NCBI GenBank assembly: GCA_963736855.1 | Contig: CAVTQK010000009.1 | Coordinates: 192,001 to 256,000 of the forward strand | Reading direction: 5' to 3' | Origin: an uncultured delta proteobacterium | GTDB lineage: Bacteria > Desulfobacterota > Desulfobacteria > Desulfobacterales > UBA2156 | DNA: 64,000 nucleotides | Part shown: positions 9,952-25,057 of the stretch, piece after piece | How the letters are laid out: the number at the start of each line of letters is the position of its first letter | How positions within the stretch are numbered: the first letter of the stretch is position 1 | The notes under the pieces: generated by a model | Databases searched by the model: none | Told to the model about the DNA's origin: nothing | Seen by the model: only the letters and a program-made list of their open reading frames with translations | Made by a program: the position numbers and the translations under genes

Positions 9952-10452
9952 CTATTGATCTGATGTCATGAGTACGCGACCCCGAGAGGTGAAAGAAACG
10001 CCTTGCTGAGATTGGGTTCCGATCATGATGCATTCAACGATAGGTGGATTTACTTTCTTTTCGGACTTCCACTCAACCATAAAATTTGCACCGGATCCCC
10101 CGGCCTTATCTCTTTCCGCTATGACATAACGTATCGATCCAAGTGGATCTAAAGAAACCGGGTTTTCGAGATATTTTTTTAAGAGCTTCCCCTGCGTATC
10201 ATAGTAATCGACCAAGGTGATATGGATAGATCCTTTTGGATCAATATTTCGAATGCTAAGTGTTACCGCCAATAAAAAAGGTATTTCACGATCGCCGCTG
10301 TAGATATGGGAATAAGCTGGAACATAAATCTTCTGTCCGTCGGATAACCCTTTTACCTCATTAGCGTCTAAAGACATGGGATAAAAAAACAAAGGGCGAA
10401 CAAAAAAAGCCGGCAAGCAAAAGGATAAGGCTTTTTCATACTTTTTCTCCAT
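9952..10452 (-). CDS. DUF3124 family protein
   Basis: YVPAYSHIY, TLSIRN, YYDTQG and GGSGANF motifs. Confidence 0.85.
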   Translation of the reverse strand: MEKKYEKALSFCLPAFFVRPLFFYPMSLDANEVKGLSDGQKIYVPAYSHIYSGDREIPFLLAVTLSIRNIDPKGSIHITLVDYYDTQGKLLKKYLENPVSLDPLGSIRYVIAERDKAGGSGANFMVEWKSEKKVNPPIVECIMIGTQSQQGVSFTSRGRVLMTSDQ

Positions 10453-10647
10453 TTTTACTTATTATATCTCTCGATAAACGAGGATGCGGATTCGCGGAGG
10501 TCATATTTACCAAGTGCTGCATTGTTCTAAATTTATAAAGGAAAGTTTTTTCGATGTCAAAATTTTTATATTTTGAAAGGGATGAAGGGATTTGGAAAAT
10601 CCCGATTTGAAAGAAGCTACTGTGGTTCGATCAAAGCGAAGCTCGCT

Positions 10648-11271
10648 TTATGTTTTCAGTTGCCCAATCCGTCTCATCAGCTCTTCGACAAGAGCGAGAT
10701 CCTTTTGTCCCGGACGCTTTTCGACACCGCTGTTGACATCAACGGCATAGGGTCTGACCATCCGAACGGCTTGTTGAATGTTTTCAGGGGTCAGCCCGCC
10801 TGATAGAATGATCGGGATACCATGTTTCCGGGCTTTAACGGCGAGCTTCCAGTCGAAGGTTTCCCCGGTACCCCCCATTTTTACACTGTGGTAGGTGTCC
10901 AATACAGCTCCTTTGACAACCCCGCGGTAAGAATTTATCGCTGAAAGGCTTGAGGGGTTCTGTATCCGAAATGCCTTGATTGCCGAAAAAGGCAGATTGC
11001 GACAATAATCGGGGGTTTCTTCTCCATGAAGCTGAACCAGATCCAGACCACAGAATGTCGCAATATCGAGAAGCGTCCTGGGCCGCTCATCCACAAAGAC
11101 TCCTACAGACCGGACAAACGGCGGGAGGTTATCGATGATCGCCTTCGCTTTTTCCGGAGACACCCGCCGGGGGCTTTCGGCGAATATGAATCCCAGTGCG
11201 TCGACTCCGCAGCGCACGGCCCATAACGCATCCCGGATGCGGGTGATCCCGCAGATTTTGACTCTGACCAT
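10648..11271 (-). CDS. trpF: Phosphoribosylanthranilate isomerase
   Basis: VKICGIT, VQLHGEE, GGTGETFDW and DVNSGVE motifs. Confidence 0.97.
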   Translation of the reverse strand: MVRVKICGITRIRDALWAVRCGVDALGFIFAESPRRVSPEKAKAIIDNLPPFVRSVGVFVDERPRTLLDIATFCGLDLVQLHGEETPDYCRNLPFSAIKAFRIQNPSSLSAINSYRGVVKGAVLDTYHSVKMGGTGETFDWKLAVKARKHGIPIILSGGLTPENIQQAVRMVRPYAVDVNSGVEKRPGQKDLALVEELMRRIGQLKT

Positions 11272-15541: not shown

Positions 15542-16003
15542 TCATTTGTTTTCGGAAATCATATCGCCCATGGCCCGAAGCGCCATCCGATAGCCCTCTG
15601 TTCCGAACCCCGAAAGAGTTGCTGTGGCAATATCGGAAATCATGGAGCGATGTCGAAAAGGCTCTCGTTTATAAATATTGGATATGTGCACCTCCACAAT
15701 GGGGATATCCAGACAAAGCAACGCGTCTCGAATCGCGATGCTGGTGTGGCTGAAAGCAGCAGGATTGATAATGACCCCGGCATAGCCCTCTCTGGCTTCC
15801 TGGATTCTGTCGATGATAGCGCCTTCATGGTTGGACTGAAACATCTCAACCTCAATCCCCAGCCGCCTGCTGTCATTTTCCAATTCTTTCCGGATGGTCT
15901 CCAGTGTCTTTTTTCCATAGAGGCGGGGTTCTCTTTTGCCTAAAAGATTCAGGTTGGGACCGTGAATCACCAATACCTTGGCTTTTTGTTTCTTCACTTT
16001 CAT
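15542..16003 (-). CDS. aroQ: Type II 3-dehydroquinate dehydratase
   Basis: HGPNLNLLGKREP, INPAAFSHTS and EVHISN motifs; GGAG RBS before ATG 16003. Confidence 0.96.
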   Translation of the reverse strand: MKVKKQKAKVLVIHGPNLNLLGKREPRLYGKKTLETIRKELENDSRRLGIEVEMFQSNHEGAIIDRIQEAREGYAGVIINPAAFSHTSIAIRDALLCLDIPIVEVHISNIYKREPFRHRSMISDIATATLSGFGTEGYRMALRAMGDMISENK

Positions 16004-16016
16004 CAATTCTCCAATT

Positions 16017-16874
16017 TTAAAGCACCTTCCTCTGATTTTTTTCCTGCCTGGCATCACCGACTGCCTTGGTGTAGCTCCCTAAAATTTTCACAAACAAAGC
16101 ATGGGATGAAAGCTCCTGAACGGCACCGGCGACAGCAGATGAATCCCCCCCGGCTTCAACATCCGCGTAAAAAACGTACTCCCAGGGATTATCCGGTATG
16201 GGCCGGGATTCCAGCTTGGTCAGGTTCAATTGATTTTCCTGAAAGATTTTAAGGCAATCCACAAGCGCCCCAGGCCGATGCCGGGTTTTAAAGGCCAATG
16301 AAGTCTTTTCCTGAAAATCACTGATTTCCCCCTTTTGATTTTTTGCGATGACAAGAAAACGCGTCGTGTTGGTCTGAGTGGATTGAATATTCTTTTTCAG
16401 GATATCCAGGCCGTAGATCTCCGCGCATAGTATGGAAGAAATGGCCGCCCACTTTTTTGAAGAGCGCTTCGCGACCTCCTTTGCCGCACCGGCCGTATCA
16501 TAGGCCGGGACCGCTTTGAGGCCATGCTGTCTGAGAAACGCCTTGCATTGATTAAGCGCATGGGGATGGGAAAGCACGCGGGAAATATCGACGAACCGCG
16601 CTCCTTTTTTGGCTAAAAGCATGTGGGCAATAGCCATATAGACCTCCGCCCGGACCACGACATCATGACTCAGCAAAAGATCGTAGTTTTCTACTACCGT
16701 CCCCGCAATGGTGTTCTCGGCAGGAACGAATCCGAATTCCACCTTTGCTTCCATGACGGCCTTAAATACTTCTTCAAAGCTCGCACAACTCACCGGTTGC
16801 GCCTCTGATTTGAAATGCCTTTTCAGCGCCATTTCACTGTAGGCTCCGCGGATTCCCTGAAAGGCGACTCTCAT
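16017..16874 (-). CDS. pheA: Monofunctional prephenate dehydratase with ACT domain (no chorismate mutase domain)
   Basis: VAFQG..GAYSE, NTTRF and LTKLESRP motifs. Confidence 0.93.
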   Translation of the reverse strand: MRVAFQGIRGAYSEMALKRHFKSEAQPVSCASFEEVFKAVMEAKVEFGFVPAENTIAGTVVENYDLLLSHDVVVRAEVYMAIAHMLLAKKGARFVDISRVLSHPHALNQCKAFLRQHGLKAVPAYDTAGAAKEVAKRSSKKWAAISSILCAEIYGLDILKKNIQSTQTNTTRFLVIAKNQKGEISDFQEKTSLAFKTRHRPGALVDCLKIFQENQLNLTKLESRPIPDNPWEYVFYADVEAGGDSSAVAGAVQELSSHALFVKILGSYTKAVGDARQEKNQRKVL

Positions 16875-17629
16875 GCTTCCAGCTCTTTTGCAATCTCCTG
16901 CATGGCATTCACGAATGCCATGCGGATTTTCCCGGCAAAGGGGTTATATCGGTGCATGTCGTAAAAAAGCTCCCAAGTATCGTTTTGAACTACATTCAGG
17001 ATATGCAGCAGGCGTTTGTACCCCTCGGTGTCCATCTGCAAGGGTTTTGCTCCGCAGGCAGAGAGACTGCGTCCGATGAAGTGCGTTAAAGAAAGGCTGA
17101 AAGCAACCTCACGGTCGTGGGCTTCTGGAGTGGATTCGATGAGGACCAGCCCCTTCGCTTCCAAGTATGCTTTGATTTTCCGGTAATCCGGAGTCTTGAG
17201 CCGAACCGGACAAAGGAATATTTTATGCCCGACCAAGGAATCCGCAGCGCTGTCCGGACCGAACATGGGATGACACGCCAGTATGGACGTAAAATGGGGC
17301 AGGATCCTTTCCATCCATTGAACCGGATAAGTCTTGACGGAGCACACATCGATTACCAATGCATCCTCCTTCAAGTGCGGTGCCATTTGTTCGAGTAAAA
17401 GCTTCATCTTGGAAATGGGAACGGCCAGTATCACCACATCCTGTTTGCAGACCTCGGGAAGGTCGACAGGAATCGCGCCGAGGGAGCGAATAGAATCCGC
17501 CGAATCGATTTCATCATAAATATAAATTTTAAAATCTTCCATCAGATGTCTGGCCATGAAGCGACCGAACCGGCCGAAACCGATGATGCCGATCATTATC
17601 GCCTTTCGATTCTTTCCGATTCCTTCCAA
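16871..17629 (-). CDS. tyrA: Prephenate/arogenate dehydrogenase
   Basis: GIIGFGRFG, DVCSVK, HPMFGP and HD motifs. Start is TTG 17629 (GGAGG RBS) or ATG 17596. Confidence 0.9.
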   Translation of the reverse strand: MEGIGKNRKAIMIGIIGFGRFGRFMARHLMEDFKIYIYDEIDSADSIRSLGAIPVDLPEVCKQDVVILAVPISKMKLLLEQMAPHLKEDALVIDVCSVKTYPVQWMERILPHFTSILACHPMFGPDSAADSLVGHKIFLCPVRLKTPDYRKIKAYLEAKGLVLIESTPEAHDREVAFSLSLTHFIGRSLSACGAKPLQMDTEGYKRLLHILNVVQNDTWELFYDMHRYNPFAGKIRMAFVNAMQEIAKELEA

Positions 17630-17648
17630 TTCAGAACCTCCAGCCAAG

Positions 17649-18725
17649 TCACCGGATCTTTTGCCTTGCGGCCAAATCCGCAAGGACCAAAGCCGCCATG
17701 CCTTCAACGATCGGCACGGCCCTCGGGAGGACACAAGGATCATGCCGGCCGGCCCCTTTCAGCACCACAGGATTGCCGTCGTAATCCACAGTTTCCTGGG
17801 GCTTGGCGATGGTCGAAGTAGGTTTGAAGGCCGTTCGAAAATAAATGGCTTCTCCGTTGGTGATTCCTCCCTGGACTCCTCCGCTGAAGTTGGTTTTTGT
17901 TCCCAGACGACCGTTGCGCTTGACAAACAAGTCGTTGTGTTTCGAGCCCGGCATTCGGGTTCCCTCAAATCCCGAACCGATGTCGAACCCCTTGCATGCC
18001 GGTATCGAGAGCATGGCTTGGGCCAGCATGGCCTCGGTCTTATCAAAGACGGGTTCTCCGAGGCCTGCGGGAACACTGCGGCACACACACATGATGATGC
18101 CGCCCAGAGACTCGCCGGCATCACGGGCTTCACGGATGGCCCGGGCCATTTTTTCGGCGCAGGGCCCTTCCGGGCACCGCACCGGGTGGCGATCCGCATC
18201 AGCCCGTGTGACGATCTCAGGATCCACGGTTTCGCACGAAATGGATCCGACAGCCATAACCCATGCCACGATCTGTGTTCCATAGCTCTCAAAAAGGATT
18301 TTTTCGGCTACGGCGCCGGCGGCGACCCTGGCTGCGGTCTCTCTTGCGCTGGCCCTTCCCCCACCACTTTTTGACTGGATGCCGTACTTTAAGCGATAAG
18401 TGTAGTCGGCATGCGATGGACGGGGAATGTTCGCTAATTCCCCGTAGTCGGACGGGCGGCTATCCTTATTATCGATATAAAGGGCCACAGGCGTTCCCAG
18501 CGTCTTTCCGTCCTCTACACCGGAAAGAATCCTTACCCGATCCGCCTCTTTTCTGGGGGATGTAAGCGTGCTTTGTCCGGGGCGACGCCGATCGAGTTGG
18601 GGCTGGATATCTTTTTCCGAAAGGTCGATCCGGGGAGGACACCCCTCGATGACCACTCCGATGCCCGGCCCATGAGATTCACCGAAGGTCGTGATTCGGA
18701 ACAATGTGCCGAAGGAACTGGACAT
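17649..18725 (-). CDS. aroC: Chorismate synthase
   Basis: [21 protein letters not shown] and GRHDPC motifs; GAGGA RBS. Confidence 0.97.
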
Positions 18726-18750
18726 GATATTATTCCTCAAGAACCGTTAC

Positions 18751-18832
18751 TGATGGCTTCGTAAAAAGTCCATCTCTCGCTTGCAAAAGCTTTTTACGAA
18801 GCCATCAATTTTGAGTTTTTACGATTTCATCA
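18751..18832. mobile_element. MITE copy 1 (82 bp), TSD TTAC
   Basis: Ends TGATGGCTTCGTAAAAAG ... TTTTTACGATTTCATCA, flanked by TTAC at 18747-18750 and 18833-18836. Confidence 0.8.
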
Positions 18833-19398
18833 TTACTGACGTCGCAAAGGTTTTTTGGTTTAACCGGATGGATCGACTCCCGATTTCGGATCAGACAAGC
18901 CAGAATTTCTCCGGCCGTTGCCGCCGCAGAGCGTACGTCGGTGGAAATTGAAATATCCGCAGCCCATGCGTACAGCGGCGTTCGTCCGGCCAGCTCCAGA
19001 TCGATTTCTTCTGCAGCCCCTTGTGAAGTTAAGGCCGGACGGAAAGCATCTGTTGCCGGATCCGCCATCATTCGGGATCGGATGGTTTCGGATCTGGCTG
19101 TCAGCCAGATGATTTTTCCGTTTTTTTTCATGAGAGTGATGTTTCGGTTCTCCAGGACAATCCCTCCGCCGGTGGCCACGACCTGCCGATTTTTCTGAAT
19201 GATGTCTATCAAAGCCCTTTGTTCCCAGTACCTGAAAACCGGCCATCCTGAGATTGTGACGATCTCTTTGATGCTGCATCCGGAAGCCGCTGTCACCCAA
19301 TCGTCGGTATCGACAAAAGACCATTCCATTCGGTCGGCCAGGACTTTTCCGATGCTCGTTTTTCCCGAACAACGGTATCCGATAAGAAAAAGGTTCAT
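18805..19398 (-). CDS. aroK: Shikimate kinase
   Basis: GYRCSGKT P-loop, FVDTD, VATGGG and RPAL motifs. The stop codon lies inside the MITE. Confidence 0.93.
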   Translation of the reverse strand: MNLFLIGYRCSGKTSIGKVLADRMEWSFVDTDDWVTAASGCSIKEIVTISGWPVFRYWEQRALIDIIQKNRQVVATGGGIVLENRNITLMKKNGKIIWLTARSETIRSRMMADPATDAFRPALTSQGAAEEIDLELAGRTPLYAWAADISISTDVRSAAATAGEILACLIRNRESIHPVKPKNLCDVSNDEIVKTQN

Positions 19399-19399
19399 C

Positions 19400-20659
19400 T
19401 CAATGCAGCCCTTCCCAAATTTTCCAGAAATCCGGAAACGATTTTCCTACGCAGGCATCGTTATCGATATAAACACCTGGTGTCTTTAGGCCGGCTGCGG
19501 CAAAGCTCATGGCGATCCGGTGGTCATCCTGCGTAGCAATAACCGCCCCATGCGGAATACCCCCTTGAATGCTTAACCCGTCCTCATGGGCCGTAGCCTC
19601 AATGCCCATCTTCCGAAGCCCGGTAACCACCGTATCGATACGGTCGCTCTCTTTTCCCTTCAAGTGGCCCACGCCTTTAATGACGGTCCGGCCCTTTGCA
19701 TAGGCCGCAACCACCGCAATCGTCGGCACTGCGTCCGGGAGATCCGACATATCGGCCTCGATGGCATGCAAGGATCCACCGATCACGCATATCCCATCGG
19801 GTTCTCTCACAACCGTGCAGCCCATCTCCTCCAGCAAACTTACAATCCGCAAATCCCCTTGCCGGGTATCCGGATCGATACCGGTTGCGGTGATAGTTCC
19901 GCCGCTGATGGCCGCAGCCCCCCAGAAGTATCCGGCCTGGGAGCAATCTCCTTCCACCCAAAACCTTCGTGAGCGGTAATGCTGGCTTCCCGGGACGATG
20001 AAACGATCGTACCCGATCCGCTGAGAATGCACTCCGAAGGCTTCCATGACTTCTAGTGTGAGGTCTACATAGGGTTTGGATACCGGTCCGTGTGTGACCT
20101 CTATCTCGAGTCCTGCGGGTATACAAGGTGCCATGAACAAAAGACCGGAAAGGAACTGGCTGCTTCTTCTGCAATCGAGTCGAACCCTGGAGGCCAAATG
20201 GGAGCCGGCGACGATTTCAACCGGCGGGCATCCGTTTTCAGCCAGAGAGCGGGCCGGAACCCCCAGCTGATTCAAGCCGTCGATGAGCTCTTGGATGGGT
20301 CGCTGTTTCATGCGGTTGTTTCCCGTGAGCCGATAAATTCCCTCTCCAAGTACCACAAGGGCTGTCAAGAGCCGGATGGACGTTCCTGAATTCCCGAGAT
20401 CCAGAGTTTCCCTGCAGGATCGAAAGCGGCCATCGCATCCGACAACTTGAAGCCGATTTTCGTCTGTTTGTGTAATAGAGACACCGAGACGATCCAAAGC
20501 CTGAATCGTCAGGTTTGTATCTTGGCAGGATAAGGCATTGTCGATAATGGAAACGCCATGGGCCAGTCCCGCCGCCAACAAGGCCCGATGCGTCAGGCTC
20601 TTGGATCCCGGCACCGTGATTCGGTTTTCCGTTATGGGGCGAGGCTCTATGGGCTTCAT
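19400..20659 (-). CDS. aroA: 3-phosphoshikimate 1-carboxyvinyltransferase (EPSP synthase)
   Basis: PGSKS, GNSGT, SSQFLS, KESDR and DHRIAM motifs. Confidence 0.97.
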   Translation of the reverse strand: MKPIEPRPITENRITVPGSKSLTHRALLAAGLAHGVSIIDNALSCQDTNLTIQALDRLGVSITQTDENRLQVVGCDGRFRSCRETLDLGNSGTSIRLLTALVVLGEGIYRLTGNNRMKQRPIQELIDGLNQLGVPARSLAENGCPPVEIVAGSHLASRVRLDCRRSSQFLSGLLFMAPCIPAGLEIEVTHGPVSKPYVDLTLEVMEAFGVHSQRIGYDRFIVPGSQHYRSRRFWVEGDCSQAGYFWGAAAISGGTITATGIDPDTRQGDLRIVSLLEEMGCTVVREPDGICVIGGSLHAIEADMSDLPDAVPTIAVVAAYAKGRTVIKGVGHLKGKESDRIDTVVTGLRKMGIEATAHEDGLSIQGGIPHGAVIATQDDHRIAMSFAAAGLKTPGVYIDNDACVGKSFPDFWKIWEGLH

Positions 20660-21837
20660 GTATTTTTCCCCGCAACGCACAGATGCTCCAATACGACCTT
20701 GCGCATCTCAGCCACAGGAGCCTTTTGACCGGTCCATAATTCGAATTGCCGGGCGCCCTGATGGACGAACATAGAGACACCGTCGATGGGGATCGCCCCG
20801 TGTTTTTCCGCCGCCTGGAGCAGCCTTGTCCGGACCGGATTGTAAACGATATCCATGACCACGCTGCCCGGCCGTATCGCCTTTTCCGGAATCGGCATCT
20901 CTGCTTCATGGGGCCACATCCCCACCGGAGTGGCATGGATCAGAATATCCGGGTCCTTGCCGTCGAATTCCGACAGCAAGCGGAAGTCGGCCCCTAGGTT
21001 GCGGGCCAGCGCTTCTCCCTTGGTCCTGGAACGGTTGTAAAGAATCAGCTGCGCCCCGAAGCGGACGAGTTCCAAGCCGATAGCCCGGGCTGCGCCCCCG
21101 GCTCCGATGATCGCCACGATCTTCCCTTTGACCGGCGTCTTTTCGAGCAAAGCCCTTATCGAGGCCTCGCCGTCCGTATTATATCCGATCAGGCGTCCCC
21201 CATGATTCAAAATCGTGTTTACAGCTCCGGCCGATTCGGCCGATTCATGGAGTTCGTCCAGATACTCCATGACGGCGATTTTAAAAGGAAGTGTCACACT
21301 GATCCCTTTCGCATAGAGGCTTCTTAATCCTTGGATAGCCGTAGCAATTTCCTTTACCTGAAACGCCAGGTAGACGCCGTTATATCCCGTCACTTGCATA
21401 GCTCGGTTGTGCATGACAGGGCTCAGGCTGTGGAATACCGGGTTCCCGATGACGCCAAAAAGCTCTGTCCGGGCATCTGCCGGATGCAGATTGCAGGATA
21501 TGGGTCTTTCGCTTTTCTCCGGCCTCGGATCACGACAGTTCGATCCGTTTTCTTCCTGGACCGCGCGGGAAGCGTCTATGAGGATGCGCATGATTCGTTC
21601 CAGGTGGTCCTCTTTCAAAGGTCCCCGGTTTTTAGACGCCAGGCACCTGACAATCTCTTCTTCCCGTTTGGGATCGATAACGACATCTCCACATTGCTTC
21701 TTGAGCTTCCCGATCCTTCCGGCGATCCGGAGTCGACGATTGGCCAGTTCCAGAATCTTTTCGTCGATGGCGTCGATGGATTTACGCAGATCCGACAGAC
21801 TGCCAAGCCCGTCCAGATGGTCTTTAGGATTTTCCAT
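20656..21837 (-). CDS. aroE: Chorismate mutase (type II, AroQ-class) fused to shikimate dehydrogenase
   Basis: N-terminal LRKSIDAID..RR..IGKLK..DPKREEE..ASRAVQ; C-terminal HSLSPVMHN, SVTLPFK, GAVNT, NTD and GAGGAA. Confidence 0.92.
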   Translation of the reverse strand: MENPKDHLDGLGSLSDLRKSIDAIDEKILELANRRLRIAGRIGKLKKQCGDVVIDPKREEEIVRCLASKNRGPLKEDHLERIMRILIDASRAVQEENGSNCRDPRPEKSERPISCNLHPADARTELFGVIGNPVFHSLSPVMHNRAMQVTGYNGVYLAFQVKEIATAIQGLRSLYAKGISVTLPFKIAVMEYLDELHESAESAGAVNTILNHGGRLIGYNTDGEASIRALLEKTPVKGKIVAIIGAGGAARAIGLELVRFGAQLILYNRSRTKGEALARNLGADFRLLSEFDGKDPDILIHATPVGMWPHEAEMPIPEKAIRPGSVVMDIVYNPVRTRLLQAAEKHGAIPIDGVSMFVHQGARQFELWTGQKAPVAEMRKVVLEHLCVAGKNT

Positions 21838-22861
21838 GGATATCCGACATCAACCGTTTCAGTTTTTCCATTGAAATGCGTTCAACCCGGGCCTCTCCGA
21901 GTCGGTTTAAAAACACGAAGTGAATCCCATCTCCTTCGCGTTTCTTGTCCTTTCCGAGCACTGGAAATAAGCGATCACTCTCCAAATCGATGGCTACAGG
22001 CAGGTCCAAACGTTGCAAGAGTCGGATCAGCCGCTGGACCTCGGTTTTACTTAAAGATCCTTCTTGAACCGAAACCCCGGCAGCCATGACCATGCCGATG
22101 CTCACCGCATGGCCGTGAGGCAAGCCCGTGATTGTCTCAATGGCATGGCCGAACGTGTGGCCGAAATTCAGCTTTCGGCGTTCTCCGGCTTCCCTTTCAT
22201 CGGCCTCGACGATCGATGCCTTGATCTGAACGGATTCATAAATCAGTTTCTCAAGAATCGGGGGCTCCAAGGCCAAAATTTCATGCGCGTGGTTTTCCAT
22301 GAAGCTCAACAAGGGTTCATGAGCAATGGCCGCGTGTTTGACGATCTCGGCCAACCCACAAGACACTTCCTTTTCAGGCAATGTTTTTAACACTAAAGGA
22401 TCACACAGGACGAATTCCGGCTGACGGATGGTCCCCACCATATTCTTGTAGCCTTCGAAATTCACCCCGTTTTTTCCTCCGATGGCGGCGTCCACCTGGG
22501 CCAAAAGGGTCGTTGCAACAAGACCGAACCGGACGCCCCGCAGGAAAGTCGAGGCTGTAAATCCCGCCACATCACAAACGATCCCTCCGCCGATACCCAC
22601 CATAAAACTGGAGCGGTCCGCCTGCAGCCGGATGAGTCGGTCATAAAGATCGTAAACGGTCTTTAAAGTTTTAGCGGATTCTCCGATGCCGATCGGAATT
22701 ACCTGTCCCTTTGGAAACCGATTTCCATAATACTTTTGCACCGTGGAATCCGTGATGAGGATGGGATTTTCGACGGGGATATGCCGGGCCAGATCAACGA
22801 GCCCTTCGCCGATCAAAAGACGTGAGGAATTCGGATATCCTTTTAATTGAATTGTCGGCAT
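21824..22861 (-). CDS. aroB: 3-dehydroquinate synthase
   Basis: GGGIVCD, TTLLAQVDAAIGGK and LNFGHTFGHA motifs. Confidence 0.96.
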   Translation of the reverse strand: MPTIQLKGYPNSSRLLIGEGLVDLARHIPVENPILITDSTVQKYYGNRFPKGQVIPIGIGESAKTLKTVYDLYDRLIRLQADRSSFMVGIGGGIVCDVAGFTASTFLRGVRFGLVATTLLAQVDAAIGGKNGVNFEGYKNMVGTIRQPEFVLCDPLVLKTLPEKEVSCGLAEIVKHAAIAHEPLLSFMENHAHEILALEPPILEKLIYESVQIKASIVEADEREAGERRKLNFGHTFGHAIETITGLPHGHAVSIGMVMAAGVSVQEGSLSKTEVQRLIRLLQRLDLPVAIDLESDRLFPVLGKDKKREGDGIHFVFLNRLGEARVERISMEKLKRLMSDIHGKS

Positions 22862-22866
22862 TGCTT

Positions 22867-23925
22867 TTAGGCTCTTGATGAGGTCTGCATCAAACGATCG
22901 TGCGTGTTCGTAATGAGTGCTTCCGTCGTTTCCCATGAGATGCATTCATCGGTAATCGATACGCCGTACCGGAGGGTGCTCCAGTCGCCGTTGAACGTCT
23001 GGTTTCCTTCATGCAAATTGCTTTCGAGCATGAGCCCGATGACGGCCTCGCTTCCGGCAAGGCACTGGGCGATGACGTTTTTCCATACTACGGGTTGTCC
23101 CTGATATTTTTTCATGCAGTTGCCATGGGAACAATCCACTATGACGGCCTCAGGCAGCCCTTTTTCGATCAGTTTCAACCGGGCCTCTTCAATGGTGATG
23201 GGGTCGTAGTTTGGCCGCTTTCCCCCTCTCAAGACGATGTGGCCCCAGGGATTGCCGGCCGTTTTCACGACACACGTAGTGCCTTCCTGATCGATTCCCA
23301 GAAAACTTTGGGGGGCCTTCGCCGCAAGCATCGCATTAATGGCCGAGGTCGTATTCCCGTCGGTACCGTTCTTGAAGCCTACCGGCATGGACAGGCCGCT
23401 GGCCATTTCCCGGTGGGTTTGAGATTCAATGGTGCGTGCTCCCACCGCGGCCCAACAGATTAAATCGGCTACGTATTGAGGGGTGATGGGGTCTAAAAAT
23501 TCGGTGGCGGTGGGAAGTCCCATTTCGGTGACCCGAAGCAACAGCCACCGGGCCATGCGCAATCCCTCCGACATATTGCAGGTTCCGTCCAGAGAAGGAT
23601 CGTTGATGAAGCCTTTCCAGCCGATCGTAGTACGCGGTTTTTCAAAATAGACCCTCATCACCAGAAAGAGGGTCTTTTCAACCTTCTCCTTTAAAACAGA
23701 TAGTCTCTGGGCATATTCCAGGGCGGTCTTTTCATCATGGATGGAGCACGGGCCAACAATCACCAAAAGCCGCTTATCTCTTTTGGAAAGTATACCCTCG
23801 ATGGATTCTCGCCCCCGGTGCACGCAATCGACCGCCCGATCGCTGAGCGGCATCTGTTTCTTTAAGACACTTGGAATCATCAACGGATGGTACCCTTTCA
23901 CCCTCAGGTCTTCTGTTGATTTCAT
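22867..23925 (-). CDS. DAHP synthase, class I-alpha (AroF/G/H type)
   Basis: VGPCSIHD, RVYFEKPRT, VGART.ESQ.HR, DCSHGN and GVSITD.C motifs; paralog identity cannot be assigned. Confidence 0.95.
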   Translation of the reverse strand: MKSTEDLRVKGYHPLMIPSVLKKQMPLSDRAVDCVHRGRESIEGILSKRDKRLLVIVGPCSIHDEKTALEYAQRLSVLKEKVEKTLFLVMRVYFEKPRTTIGWKGFINDPSLDGTCNMSEGLRMARWLLLRVTEMGLPTATEFLDPITPQYVADLICWAAVGARTIESQTHREMASGLSMPVGFKNGTDGNTTSAINAMLAAKAPQSFLGIDQEGTTCVVKTAGNPWGHIVLRGGKRPNYDPITIEEARLKLIEKGLPEAVIVDCSHGNCMKKYQGQPVVWKNVIAQCLAGSEAVIGLMLESNLHEGNQTFNGDWSTLRYGVSITDECISWETTEALITNTHDRLMQTSSRA

Positions 23926-23993
23926 AATACACACCCTTTGCCGCTTGTTTTTTCGTTGAAAAATCGGATCACGCATGATCCCCATGAAGCCCT

Positions 23994-24043
23994 AAAAAGC
24001 AAAAAAGCCGTGGGGGCTTTTTTCATCCACCCACGGCTTTTTT
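23994..24043 (-). terminator. Attenuator terminator of the aro operon
   Basis: mRNA AAAAAAGCCGUGGG-(15 nt)-CCCACGGCUUUUUU then GCUUUUU; perfect 14-bp inverted repeat at 24001-24014 and 24030-24043. Confidence 0.9.
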
Positions 24044-24060
24044 CTTAAAAGGCTATGCCA

Positions 24061-24132
24061 TCAATCCATGGGCAGATGTCTCCTGCTAAAATAAAACCAA
24101 TAAAAATTCTGCCAGGATCGATAAATATACAT
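24061..24132 (-). CDS. Aromatic-rich leader peptide MYIYRSWQNFYWFYFSRRHLPMD (23 aa)
   Basis: AAAGGA RBS before ATG 24132; 9 of codons 2-15 are Tyr/Phe/Trp; overlaps the antiterminator arm at 24066-24078. Confidence 0.9.
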   Translation of the reverse strand: MYIYRSWQNFYWFYFSRRHLPMD

Positions 24133-24161
24133 TATAAGATTCCTTTAACTGATGATGGACC

Positions 24162-24189
24162 TTTATATGAGCGTCGATCCCCCTGTCAA
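24162..24189 (-). promoter_or_regulatory. sigma70-type promoter of the aro leader
   Basis: TTGACA-N16-TATAAA about 30 nt upstream of the leader ATG. Confidence 0.7.
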
Positions 24190-24375
24190 GAGAAAAATGT
24201 ACTTTGTAAAAAATTCTCTGAAAATTCCGAACCGTTTCATACGGATTTAAGATGAACAGGACTTGCAGGTCTTAGGAAGTGGAAACATACCATTCGCATG
24301 CTGTTGTCGATAGGGAGCGGGGTTGGCTTGGTGTCAATAGGTCGAGGACCAGCGACTTTTTCTGGGAGAGGAGAA

Positions 24376-24407
24376 AGCCCCAAGAAGGGATTTTCCTTCT
24401 TGGGGCT
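24376..24407 (-). terminator. Hairpin after the lipoprotein gene (probable terminator)
   Basis: Perfect 13-bp stem AGCCCCAAGAAGG/CCTTCTTGGGGCT just after the stop at 24425. Confidence 0.7.
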
Positions 24408-24424
24408 GGAAAGTTAAAAGCAGT

Positions 24425-25057
24425 TTATTTTTTCTTTTGGGGTAGTTTGGTGGCGGCAGCCTTTATCAATTCTTCAGCCTTGACCTTGGCGTCGGCGATT
24501 CCCTGCTCCAACTGTCCGAGCTGATCTTTGATCGCGGTGGCTTTACCCTTGACTTCATTAAATTTTCCTTCGGAAATCATCCCGCTTAACTCGCCGATCT
24601 CCGTTTCTGCCGCAACCAGTTGATCTTTAATGGGTTGCAGCAAGTCAGCGGGTATCTTTGCAGCCTCCGCCTCCGTAATGAGACCTTTCGCTTTTTCAAC
24701 TCCCTGGTTGATTTCATTCACAAGGGCATCGGAGGTTTCCTTGGCTTTTGCCTTCCCCGCCTCGATGGCCGCTTTTGCTTTATCAGCGGCGTCTTTTACC
24801 TGAATTGCAGTTTGCTTTGCCGCTTTATAATCCTTCTTTTCAATCTGCGAATCCAGTTTGACCATCAAATCCTGTGCCGCTTTCAACGCATCGGGAGCGA
24901 ACTGTTCCGCTCCACCGGATATGGCCGCCTGGAGGGCTGCCTTGGATGCATCAATTTCTTGTTTCGGCGGTTGGCCTCCGCAAGCTGAAATGAAGGCGAT
25001 CGTCAGTATACAGCAGAAAAATACGCTTAATTTCCGGATGAAACTTTCCCTTTTCAT
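24425..25057 (-). CDS. Alanine/lysine-rich coiled-coil lipoprotein (DUF4398-like N-terminus)
   Basis: Lipobox ISA-C; PP.QEI..A..AL..A...GA..FAP pattern. Confidence 0.75.
   Translation of the reverse strand: MKRESFIRKLSVFFCCILTIAFISACGGQPPKQEIDASKAALQAAISGGAEQFAPDALKAAQDLMVKLDSQIEKKDYKAAKQTAIQVKDAADKAKAAIEAGKAKAKETSDALVNEINQGVEKAKGLITEAEAAKIPADLLQPIKDQLVAAETEIGELSGMISEGKFNEVKGKATAIKDQLGQLEQGIADAKVKAEELIKAAATKLPQKKK

Follow-up and report, generated by a model that had tools for sequence, protein, structure and literature searches.

Among the closest described counterparts of the regulatory element reported here are the Escherichia coli leaders pheL-pheA and trpL-trpEDCBA (Rfam Phe_leader, RF01859, and Trp_leader). 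Each combines an upstream open reading frame (uORF) carrying cognate codons with alternative 1:2, 2:3 and 3:4 helices, each reads one amino acid, and each controls a terminal branch. Other E. coli leaders mix the codons of several end products within one peptide: ilvL, ahead of ilvGMEDA (Ile, Leu and Val), and thrL (Thr and Ile). In these leaders any shortage relieves termination. The element described here is a leader located upstream of a nine-gene aromatic (aro) operon in a 64,000 nt stretch of DNA from an uncultured delta proteobacterium (assembly GCA_963736855.1, contig CAVTQK010000009.1; the whole stretch is hereafter the window). This leader has the layout of pheL and trpL and would share the multivalent logic of ilvL and thrL, from which it differs in pathway and amino acids and to which it has no sequence relationship.

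A preliminary description of the window knew of no characterized tri-aromatic leader. A leader with mixed aromatic codons is known from Corynebacterium glutamicum, where the aroR leader peptide (Phe-Tyr-Phe; Neshat et al. 2014) precedes aroF, as described in excerpts of two papers (PMC11802643, PMC4046766). Compared by description only, the likeness is that of a leader-peptide attenuator with mixed aromatic codons ahead of a 3-deoxy-D-arabino-heptulosonate 7-phosphate (DAHP) synthase gene. As described there, aroR has three regulatory codons and no Trp, whereas the run in the window has six aromatic codons (nine in the whole peptide), Trp included. Unlike aroR, the window's leader precedes nine genes including tyrA and pheA, comes from a different phylum, and belongs to a family also found before 2-amino-3,7-dideoxy-D-threo-hept-6-ulosonate (ADH) synthase. 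The uORFC-13-1 motif upstream of aroF in Acholeplasma, a predicted uORF with a terminator, has been proposed as a sensor of an aromatic amino acid (Brewer et al. 2021, PMC8632094). The passage on this motif reports a U run coding for at least one Phe and 24 representatives (one genus plus environmental sequences), and holds neither a Tyr/Trp mixture nor an antiterminator analysis.

The leader in the window is proposed to be a ribosome-mediated attenuator that would induce the nine-gene operon on a shortage of charged tRNA-Phe or tRNA-Tyr, with charged tRNA-Trp a likely third trigger. The probability of this reading is put at roughly 0.7. That the element is a genuine attenuator is predicted with high confidence.

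Leader Structure and Alternative Folds

The leader lies on the minus strand (Table 1). Its uORF encodes the peptide MYIYRSWQNFYWFYFSRRHLPMD, in which four Tyr, three Phe and two Trp residues account for nine aromatic codons. Of the 798 small open reading frames (ORFs) of 12-45 amino acids (aa) in the whole window, no other has six aromatic residues within seven consecutive positions; the aromatic density of the uORF is not a product of chance. The uORF is followed by a G+C-rich hairpin (24041-23994), in which AAAAAAGCCGUGGG pairs with CCCACGGCUUUUUU and which ends in a U6-GC-U5 tail. Counting A-U pairs, the stem has the 14 bp given in the preliminary description; its G+C core is 8 bp, and a consensus terminator scan returned the terminator in a shorter register. 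The other elements of that description (TTGACA-N16-TATAAA, AAAGGA, the uORF at 24132-24061, and both antiterminator segments) were likewise found exactly in the minus-strand sequence, and translation of the uORF gave the same residue counts.

A second, weak terminator-like hairpin (GGAUCAUGCGUGAUCC with a U-rich tail) was present at 23966-23981 (minus strand), between the main terminator and the start of the DAHP synthase gene. Clear tandem terminators followed the leader in several relatives (L005, L006, L010, and L014).

Folding of 24150-23990 gave a 1:2 hairpin (24123-24108 with ~24076-24056), as the preliminary description had suggested, together with the terminator, at -53.6 kcal/mol (z = -4.7); none of 200 shuffled sequences folded equally well. 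With the terminator 3' arm removed, 13 consecutive 2:3 pairs formed, three of them G-U, exactly the antiterminator described beforehand. The 2:3 antiterminator and the terminator are mutually exclusive because both use 24036-24030.

The effect of a ribosome was modeled in 15 leaders by folding each RNA as far as segment 3 while keeping a 28-nt ribosome footprint single-stranded. A footprint on the stop codon left no antiterminator pairs in any of the 15 leaders. With the footprint moved into the aromatic run, three or more codon positions per leader kept at least 10 of the 13 antiterminator pairs, again in 15 of 15. For the window's leader, A-site codons 10-14 left all 13 pairs free. Folding with and without the ribosome footprint had been proposed as a check in the preliminary description; in the model, masking at the stop codon abolishes the antiterminator, and a stall in the run leaves it free.

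Covariation in the Three Helices

All three helices were retained across the aligned leaders through compensatory change. The terminator helix was paired in 96.1% of cells with double changes at six pairs in the 15-sequence alignment, and in 95.9% with double changes at eight pairs among 79 sequences; slid controls were 36-63% paired. Corresponding values for the antiterminator helix were 86.2% and five pairs (15 sequences) and 87.1% and seven pairs (79 sequences), with slid controls at 26-49%. The 1:2 helix of the majority type was 77.6% paired among 79 sequences (slid controls 32-47%), a figure that takes in 11 rows of the window's leader type, which align elsewhere. In all five helix counts the observed covariation score was reached by none of 500 shuffles. 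Alignment A2 was fitted to the terminator alone, so the antiterminator and the 1:2 helix were not favored by the fit.

Distribution and Conservation of the Leader Family

Three genome samples were used: 41 genomes for orthologs and 151 genomes from the order (likely Desulfobacterales), and 151 genomes phylum-wide. Orthologous AroFGH-type DAHP synthase genes were found in 17 of the 41 genomes (18 loci), and an aromatic-rich uORF preceded 15 of these 18 loci. Two of the three loci without a uORF (L016 and L018) were operon-internal copies and the third (L017) was divergent. The TTGACA hexamer was kept at the equivalent position in all 14 orthologous upstream regions inspected. Together with the covarying stems, these uORFs are what the preliminary description had proposed to look for upstream of DAHP synthase in relatives.

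A covariance model (R1) was built from the alignment of the 15 leaders and applied with a match threshold of E <= 0.001. Matches were found in 137 of the 151 sampled genomes of the order (105 of 113 among the high-quality ones) and in 67 of the 151 genomes of the phylum-wide sample. The window's genome carried exactly one strong copy. A weak match on contig 15 of the same genome (E 0.86) was rejected as spurious: it had no aromatic run, and the nearest gene, encoding a polysaccharide deacetylase, was 448 nt away.

The best matches from 72 distinct genomes of the order (30 + 2 + 40 by rank, all full-length matches) were examined further, a sample that leans toward high-scoring R1 matches. A homologous aromatic-rich uORF was present in 71 of the 72. 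One match (G103) was dropped because a contig end cuts it, leaving 71 usable leaders. Both the reading frame and the aromatic run were kept across 71 genomes despite nucleotide change. The peptides share a conserved tail, ...TGLPxVR (...HLPMD in the window), that coincides with segment 2 (GGUCUGCC...); the conservation of this tail is most simply read as a constraint on the RNA and not as a peptide function.

An Rfam scan of 23700-24500 at E <= 10 returned no family at its gathering score and only chance-level matches. Among the curated leader families the best was Phe_leader, which scored 16.7 bits (gathering score 55) and lay on the opposite (plus) strand. No T-box or riboswitch model matched in this interval.

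Genes Downstream of the Leader

Downstream gene classes were set by tblastn against NCBIfam-typed references. The gene following the 71 usable leaders was an ADH synthase in 44 cases, an AroFGH-type DAHP synthase in 22, and aroK (shikimate kinase) in two; three were unassigned. Beyond the order, the R1 leader was also followed by type I-beta DAHP synthase and by shikimate kinase. The same leader thus precedes non-homologous entry enzymes, namely type I-alpha or type I-beta DAHP synthase and ADH synthase. One predicted RNA device travels with unrelated enzymes that are alike only in opening aromatic synthesis. ADH synthase opens the archaeal-type route to dehydroquinate, and its position behind 44 of 71 leaders indicates that, with the leader kept, unrelated enzymes replace one another at the pathway entry in a single order.

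Amino Acids Probably Read by the Leader

Phe and Tyr codons were both present in the run of all 71 usable leaders, with means of 3.2 Phe and 4.2 Tyr. A Trp codon occurred within the run of about nine codons in 44 of 71 leaders. In 43 of these 44 there was one Trp; two were found only in the window's leader, whose delimited core takes in codon 7. The sequences make Phe and Tyr very likely the conserved inputs of the family. Trp is a plausible third input in the window's genome, probably weaker and lineage-specific.

Related Leaders and the trpE Leader

Weaker or second R1 matches had a common terminator module and different peptides. Phe-only runs (e.g., ...RFFFYFLGGFFF...) preceded PaaK-like phenylacetate-CoA ligases at three loci and a Liv-like ABC transporter at one. 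Tyr-only runs (...YYYYY...) preceded an ADP-forming acyl-CoA ligase and aroA-aroC. A WWW run preceded trpE, and mixed runs preceded entry enzymes. Codon content follows the controlled pathway; no other indirect evidence speaks as strongly for the mixed leader being a multi-input sensor.

The Phe-only leaders L170, L173, and L177 were followed by the PaaK-like ligase and a gene of 143 aa, and L180 by the ABC transporter; the tail ...FFFKKS(T/I)HG... was conserved among them. These leaders may provide Phe-responsive control of phenylacetate use or of uptake. The Tyr-only leaders, in the L181 and L178 settings, included a tandem pair (...AYYYYYNKG... and ...SYYYYYYWRGPP) before a 692-aa ADP-forming acyl-CoA ligase; a further Tyr-only leader, ...DSYYYYAWPE..., stood before aroA-aroC. 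Tandem attenuators, in which one gene is preceded by a pair of R1 matches 120-250 nt apart, occurred in the phylum sample at L182, L183, and L181. At L182, ADH synthase and then trpE lay behind a pair of mixed leaders, of which the second contains WW.

In the window, trpEGDCF lies directly downstream of the aro operon behind its own Trp-codon leader. The first of the two terminators of this leader resembles the aro leader module (partial R1 match, E 0.02). The layout of aro followed by trp genes recalls the nested aromatic supraoperon of Bacillus subtilis; here the leader is predicted to be read by the ribosome. Upstream of trpE in related loci, uORFs with adjacent or alternating Trp codons (WW to WWWW, WRW, or WCW) were found in 18 of 22 cases. 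One of the other four had four scattered Trp codons; the remaining three had none, two of these with less than 310 nt of upstream sequence.

The aro Operon and Neighboring Genes

The nine genes behind the leader encode, in order, DAHP synthase (AroFGH type), aroB, a chorismate mutase-aroE fusion, aroA, aroK, aroC, tyrA, pheA (PDT-ACT), and aroQ. Their overlaps and tiny gaps suggest that they form one transcription unit. Because of this gene content the operon makes chorismate, Phe, and Tyr: tyrA and pheA are within it, and no trp gene is. The third gene (20656-21837, minus strand) fuses a type II chorismate mutase domain (residues 17-95) to shikimate dehydrogenase (residues 129-383). The DAHP synthase starts at ATG 23925, as its orthologs align from residue 1; a longer ORF beginning at ATG 23985 was rejected, the ortholog alignment beginning at 23925. 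The nearest named relatives of this DAHP synthase (59-70% identity) were from Desulfobacteraceae, Desulfobacter, and Desulfatibacillum metagenome-assembled genomes, and the related-locus search otherwise returned mostly distant phyla. In the annotation, the DAHP synthase start is thereby fixed at 23925 and the small ORF is marked as a leader peptide.

A gene on the same strand lies upstream of the leader at 24425-25057. The trp cluster, in the region of 9952-11271 (minus strand), has the order trpE, trpG, trpD, trpC, trpF, followed by a DUF3124 gene; trpB and trpA are not adjacent in the window.

Table 1. Coordinates of the aro leader, the operon behind it and the trpE leader within the window.
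Feature	Coordinates	Strand	Basis
-35-like hexamer TTGACA	24184..24189	-	Sequence
-10-like hexamer TATAAA; spacer from -35 of 16 nt	24162..24167	-	Sequence; putative function
Shine-Dalgarno-like AAAGGA; ATG 8 nt downstream	24141..24146	-	Sequence
Leader uORF MYIYRSWQNFYWFYFSRRHLPMD; 23 codons plus TGA; ATG at 24132, stop 24063-24061	24061..24132	-	Sequence and homologous uORFs
Control run, codons 10-15, UUU UAU UGG UUU UAU UUU (F Y W F Y F)	24088..24105	-	Sequence
Segment 1, UAUCGAUCC-U-GGCAGA; partner of segment 2 (anti-antiterminator); includes Trp codon 7	24108..24123	-	Minimum free energy fold
Segment 2, CAUCUGCCCAUGG; antiterminator 5' strand; overlaps final leader codons before the stop	24066..24078	-	Folding, covariation
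Segment 3, CCGUGGGUGGAUG; antiterminator 3' strand; 24030-24036 common to terminator 5' arm	24024..24036	-	Folding, covariation
Intrinsic terminator; 5' arm 24041-24030, 3' arm 24014-24003, U-tract 24006-24001, then GCUUUUU	23994..24041	-	Terminator scan, fold
Nine-gene operon, tightly packed or overlapping	15543..23925	-	Pfam, NCBIfam
trpE leader uORF ...FWRWQGENW...; TTG start; three Trp codons; between aroQ and trpE	15480-15385	-	Sequence
Two terminator hairpins behind the trpE leader uORF	~15369-15307 and 15301-15262	-	Sequence

Discussion

The leader combines a ribosome binding site and uORF, a cluster of cognate codons, a terminator before the first gene, an exclusive antiterminator with a 1:2 helix, and a modeled geometry in which a ribosome masks segment 2 when at the stop codon and leaves it free when at the control codons. 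We infer from these features that ribosomes translate the uORF and that a stall drives read-through past the U-tract, where RNA polymerase would otherwise stop. With ample aromatic aminoacyl-tRNAs, the ribosome would translate through to the UGA (24063-24061), covering segment 2 there and leaving segment 3 to pair with segment 4, and transcription would terminate at the U-tract (~24006-23994). Where a Phe, Tyr, or Trp codon of the run is hungry, translation would halt with the ribosome covering both the run and segment 1. The stall would free segment 2 to pair with the emerging segment 3, no terminator would form, and transcription would read through into all nine genes, beginning with DAHP synthase. 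Since any codon of the run could stall the ribosome, the leader would be a multi-input sensor, and its response is predicted to be OR-like.

The preliminary description had placed a stalling attenuator of the trpL/pheL type before the nine-gene aro operon, and conservation, three covarying helices, and the footprint model lend that proposal strong support. Its further proposal of triple sensing fared unevenly. The Phe and Tyr part agrees with the codons of all 71 leaders; the Trp part is weaker, given the 44 of 71 leaders with a Trp codon in the run and the separate trpE leader.

Several results weigh against the proposed reading, some of them bearing on the switch as a whole. A consensus promoter scan found no promoters; its rule needs T at position 6 of the -10 element, which TATAAA fails, and for this reason the promoter call rests on the conservation of TTGACA. 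In the equilibrium model, the ribosome-free and stalled states were alike in seven of 15 leaders including the window's, the antiterminator forming in the ribosome-free truncated RNA. Because the antiterminator wins without a ribosome in these seven, the state expected in the absence of translation depends on the assumed folding order. Leader L005 at full length folded into the antiterminator and not the first terminator, and has a second terminator. The other results concern Trp. They would fit an attenuator that reads Phe and Tyr only, in which UGG7 simply belongs to segment 1, UGG12 survives from a structural NGG codon, and Trp is sensed only at the trpE leader. Trp was absent from the run in 27 of 71 leaders, 22 of which have Arg or Gly inside the run. 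The central NGG codon lies in a moderately conserved internal hairpin that was 81.7% paired (slid controls 31-50%), and NGG may be partly a structural requirement. Trp has its dedicated WWW-type leader before trpE, in the window's genome as in the 18 related loci, and the aro operon holds tyrA and pheA without a trp gene. We nevertheless regard this restriction to Phe and Tyr as unlikely. A Trp codon in the run of 44 leaders is far above the usual frequency of a rare residue. At the central aligned codon of 79 sequences UGG (30) outnumbered the stronger-pairing CGG (11), as well as GGG (five) and AGG (three); that UGG is commonest despite its weaker U-G pair hints at selection for a Trp codon, short of proof. 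The window's leader type lacks the internal GGUAC hairpin and still keeps UGG12 in both members of the closest pair. Chorismate from the operon is also the precursor of Trp.

Codon presence is not the same as response, and this also counts against a multi-input sensor. For aroR, the one tested precedent, the review PMC11802643 reports that transcription of the C. glutamicum aroF operon rises under Phe limitation and does not respond to Tyr availability, despite the Phe-Tyr-Phe leader. The window's attenuator could likewise answer one amino acid if tRNA charging kinetics make one codon type limiting. Such a restriction seems improbable here, considering that the peptide has four Tyr and three Phe codons, that both residues are numerous in the run throughout the family, and that sister leaders with Tyr-only runs point to Tyr codons serving as sensors in these organisms. 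A switch independent of the ribosome is the hardest to reconcile with the data and is judged very improbable: the hairpin would be the terminator of the same-strand gene at 24425-25057, downstream of which it does lie, or part of a metabolite- or protein-binding RNA, with the uORF fortuitous. The conserved TTGACA lies between that gene and the uORF, the uORF frame and aromatic run persist in 71 genomes while the nucleotides change, and in all 15 leaders modeled the stop codon sits where a ribosome terminating on it would cover segment 2. In addition, Rfam gave no riboswitch or T-box match, and the aromatic entry enzymes that accompany the element belong to unrelated folds. The proposed ribosome-mediated attenuator, with Phe, Tyr, and likely Trp as inputs, remains the preferred reading.

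A broader interpretation is offered tentatively, as one that could well be wrong. The leaders would form a codon-swappable attenuator superfamily of the Desulfobacterota, in which a common chassis (GCCGYGGGCAG...CCCRCGGC-U6) carries a Phe-only, Tyr-only, Trp-only, or mixed peptide to suit the pathway. The mixed version in the window would be a true Phe/Tyr/Trp OR gate, whatever the entry enzyme (DAHP synthase of type I-alpha or I-beta, or archaeal-type ADH synthase).

The mechanism follows the known logic of trpL and pheL. The family has no Rfam model, and full-text literature searches returned no description of it. A full-text term search of Rodionov et al. (2004), on the delta-proteobacteria, gave no occurrence of "aromatic," "leader peptide," or "tryptophan," and PMC4833913 contained nothing relevant. 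An excerpt of a survey of Actinobacteria reports no conserved RNA structures for Phe/Tyr operons (PMC1262725).

The leader offers a concrete account of how entry into aromatic synthesis would be controlled in a large group of sulfate-reducing and related anaerobes. The account covers many species that use the ADH synthase route, whose regulation turned up in no literature search. It also adds an unannotated cis-regulatory RNA family, present in most sampled genomes of the order. The sister leaders, with Phe-only, Tyr-only, Trp-only, and mixed peptides, may serve to show, as a natural experiment, how an attenuator's input depends on the codons of its leader peptide.

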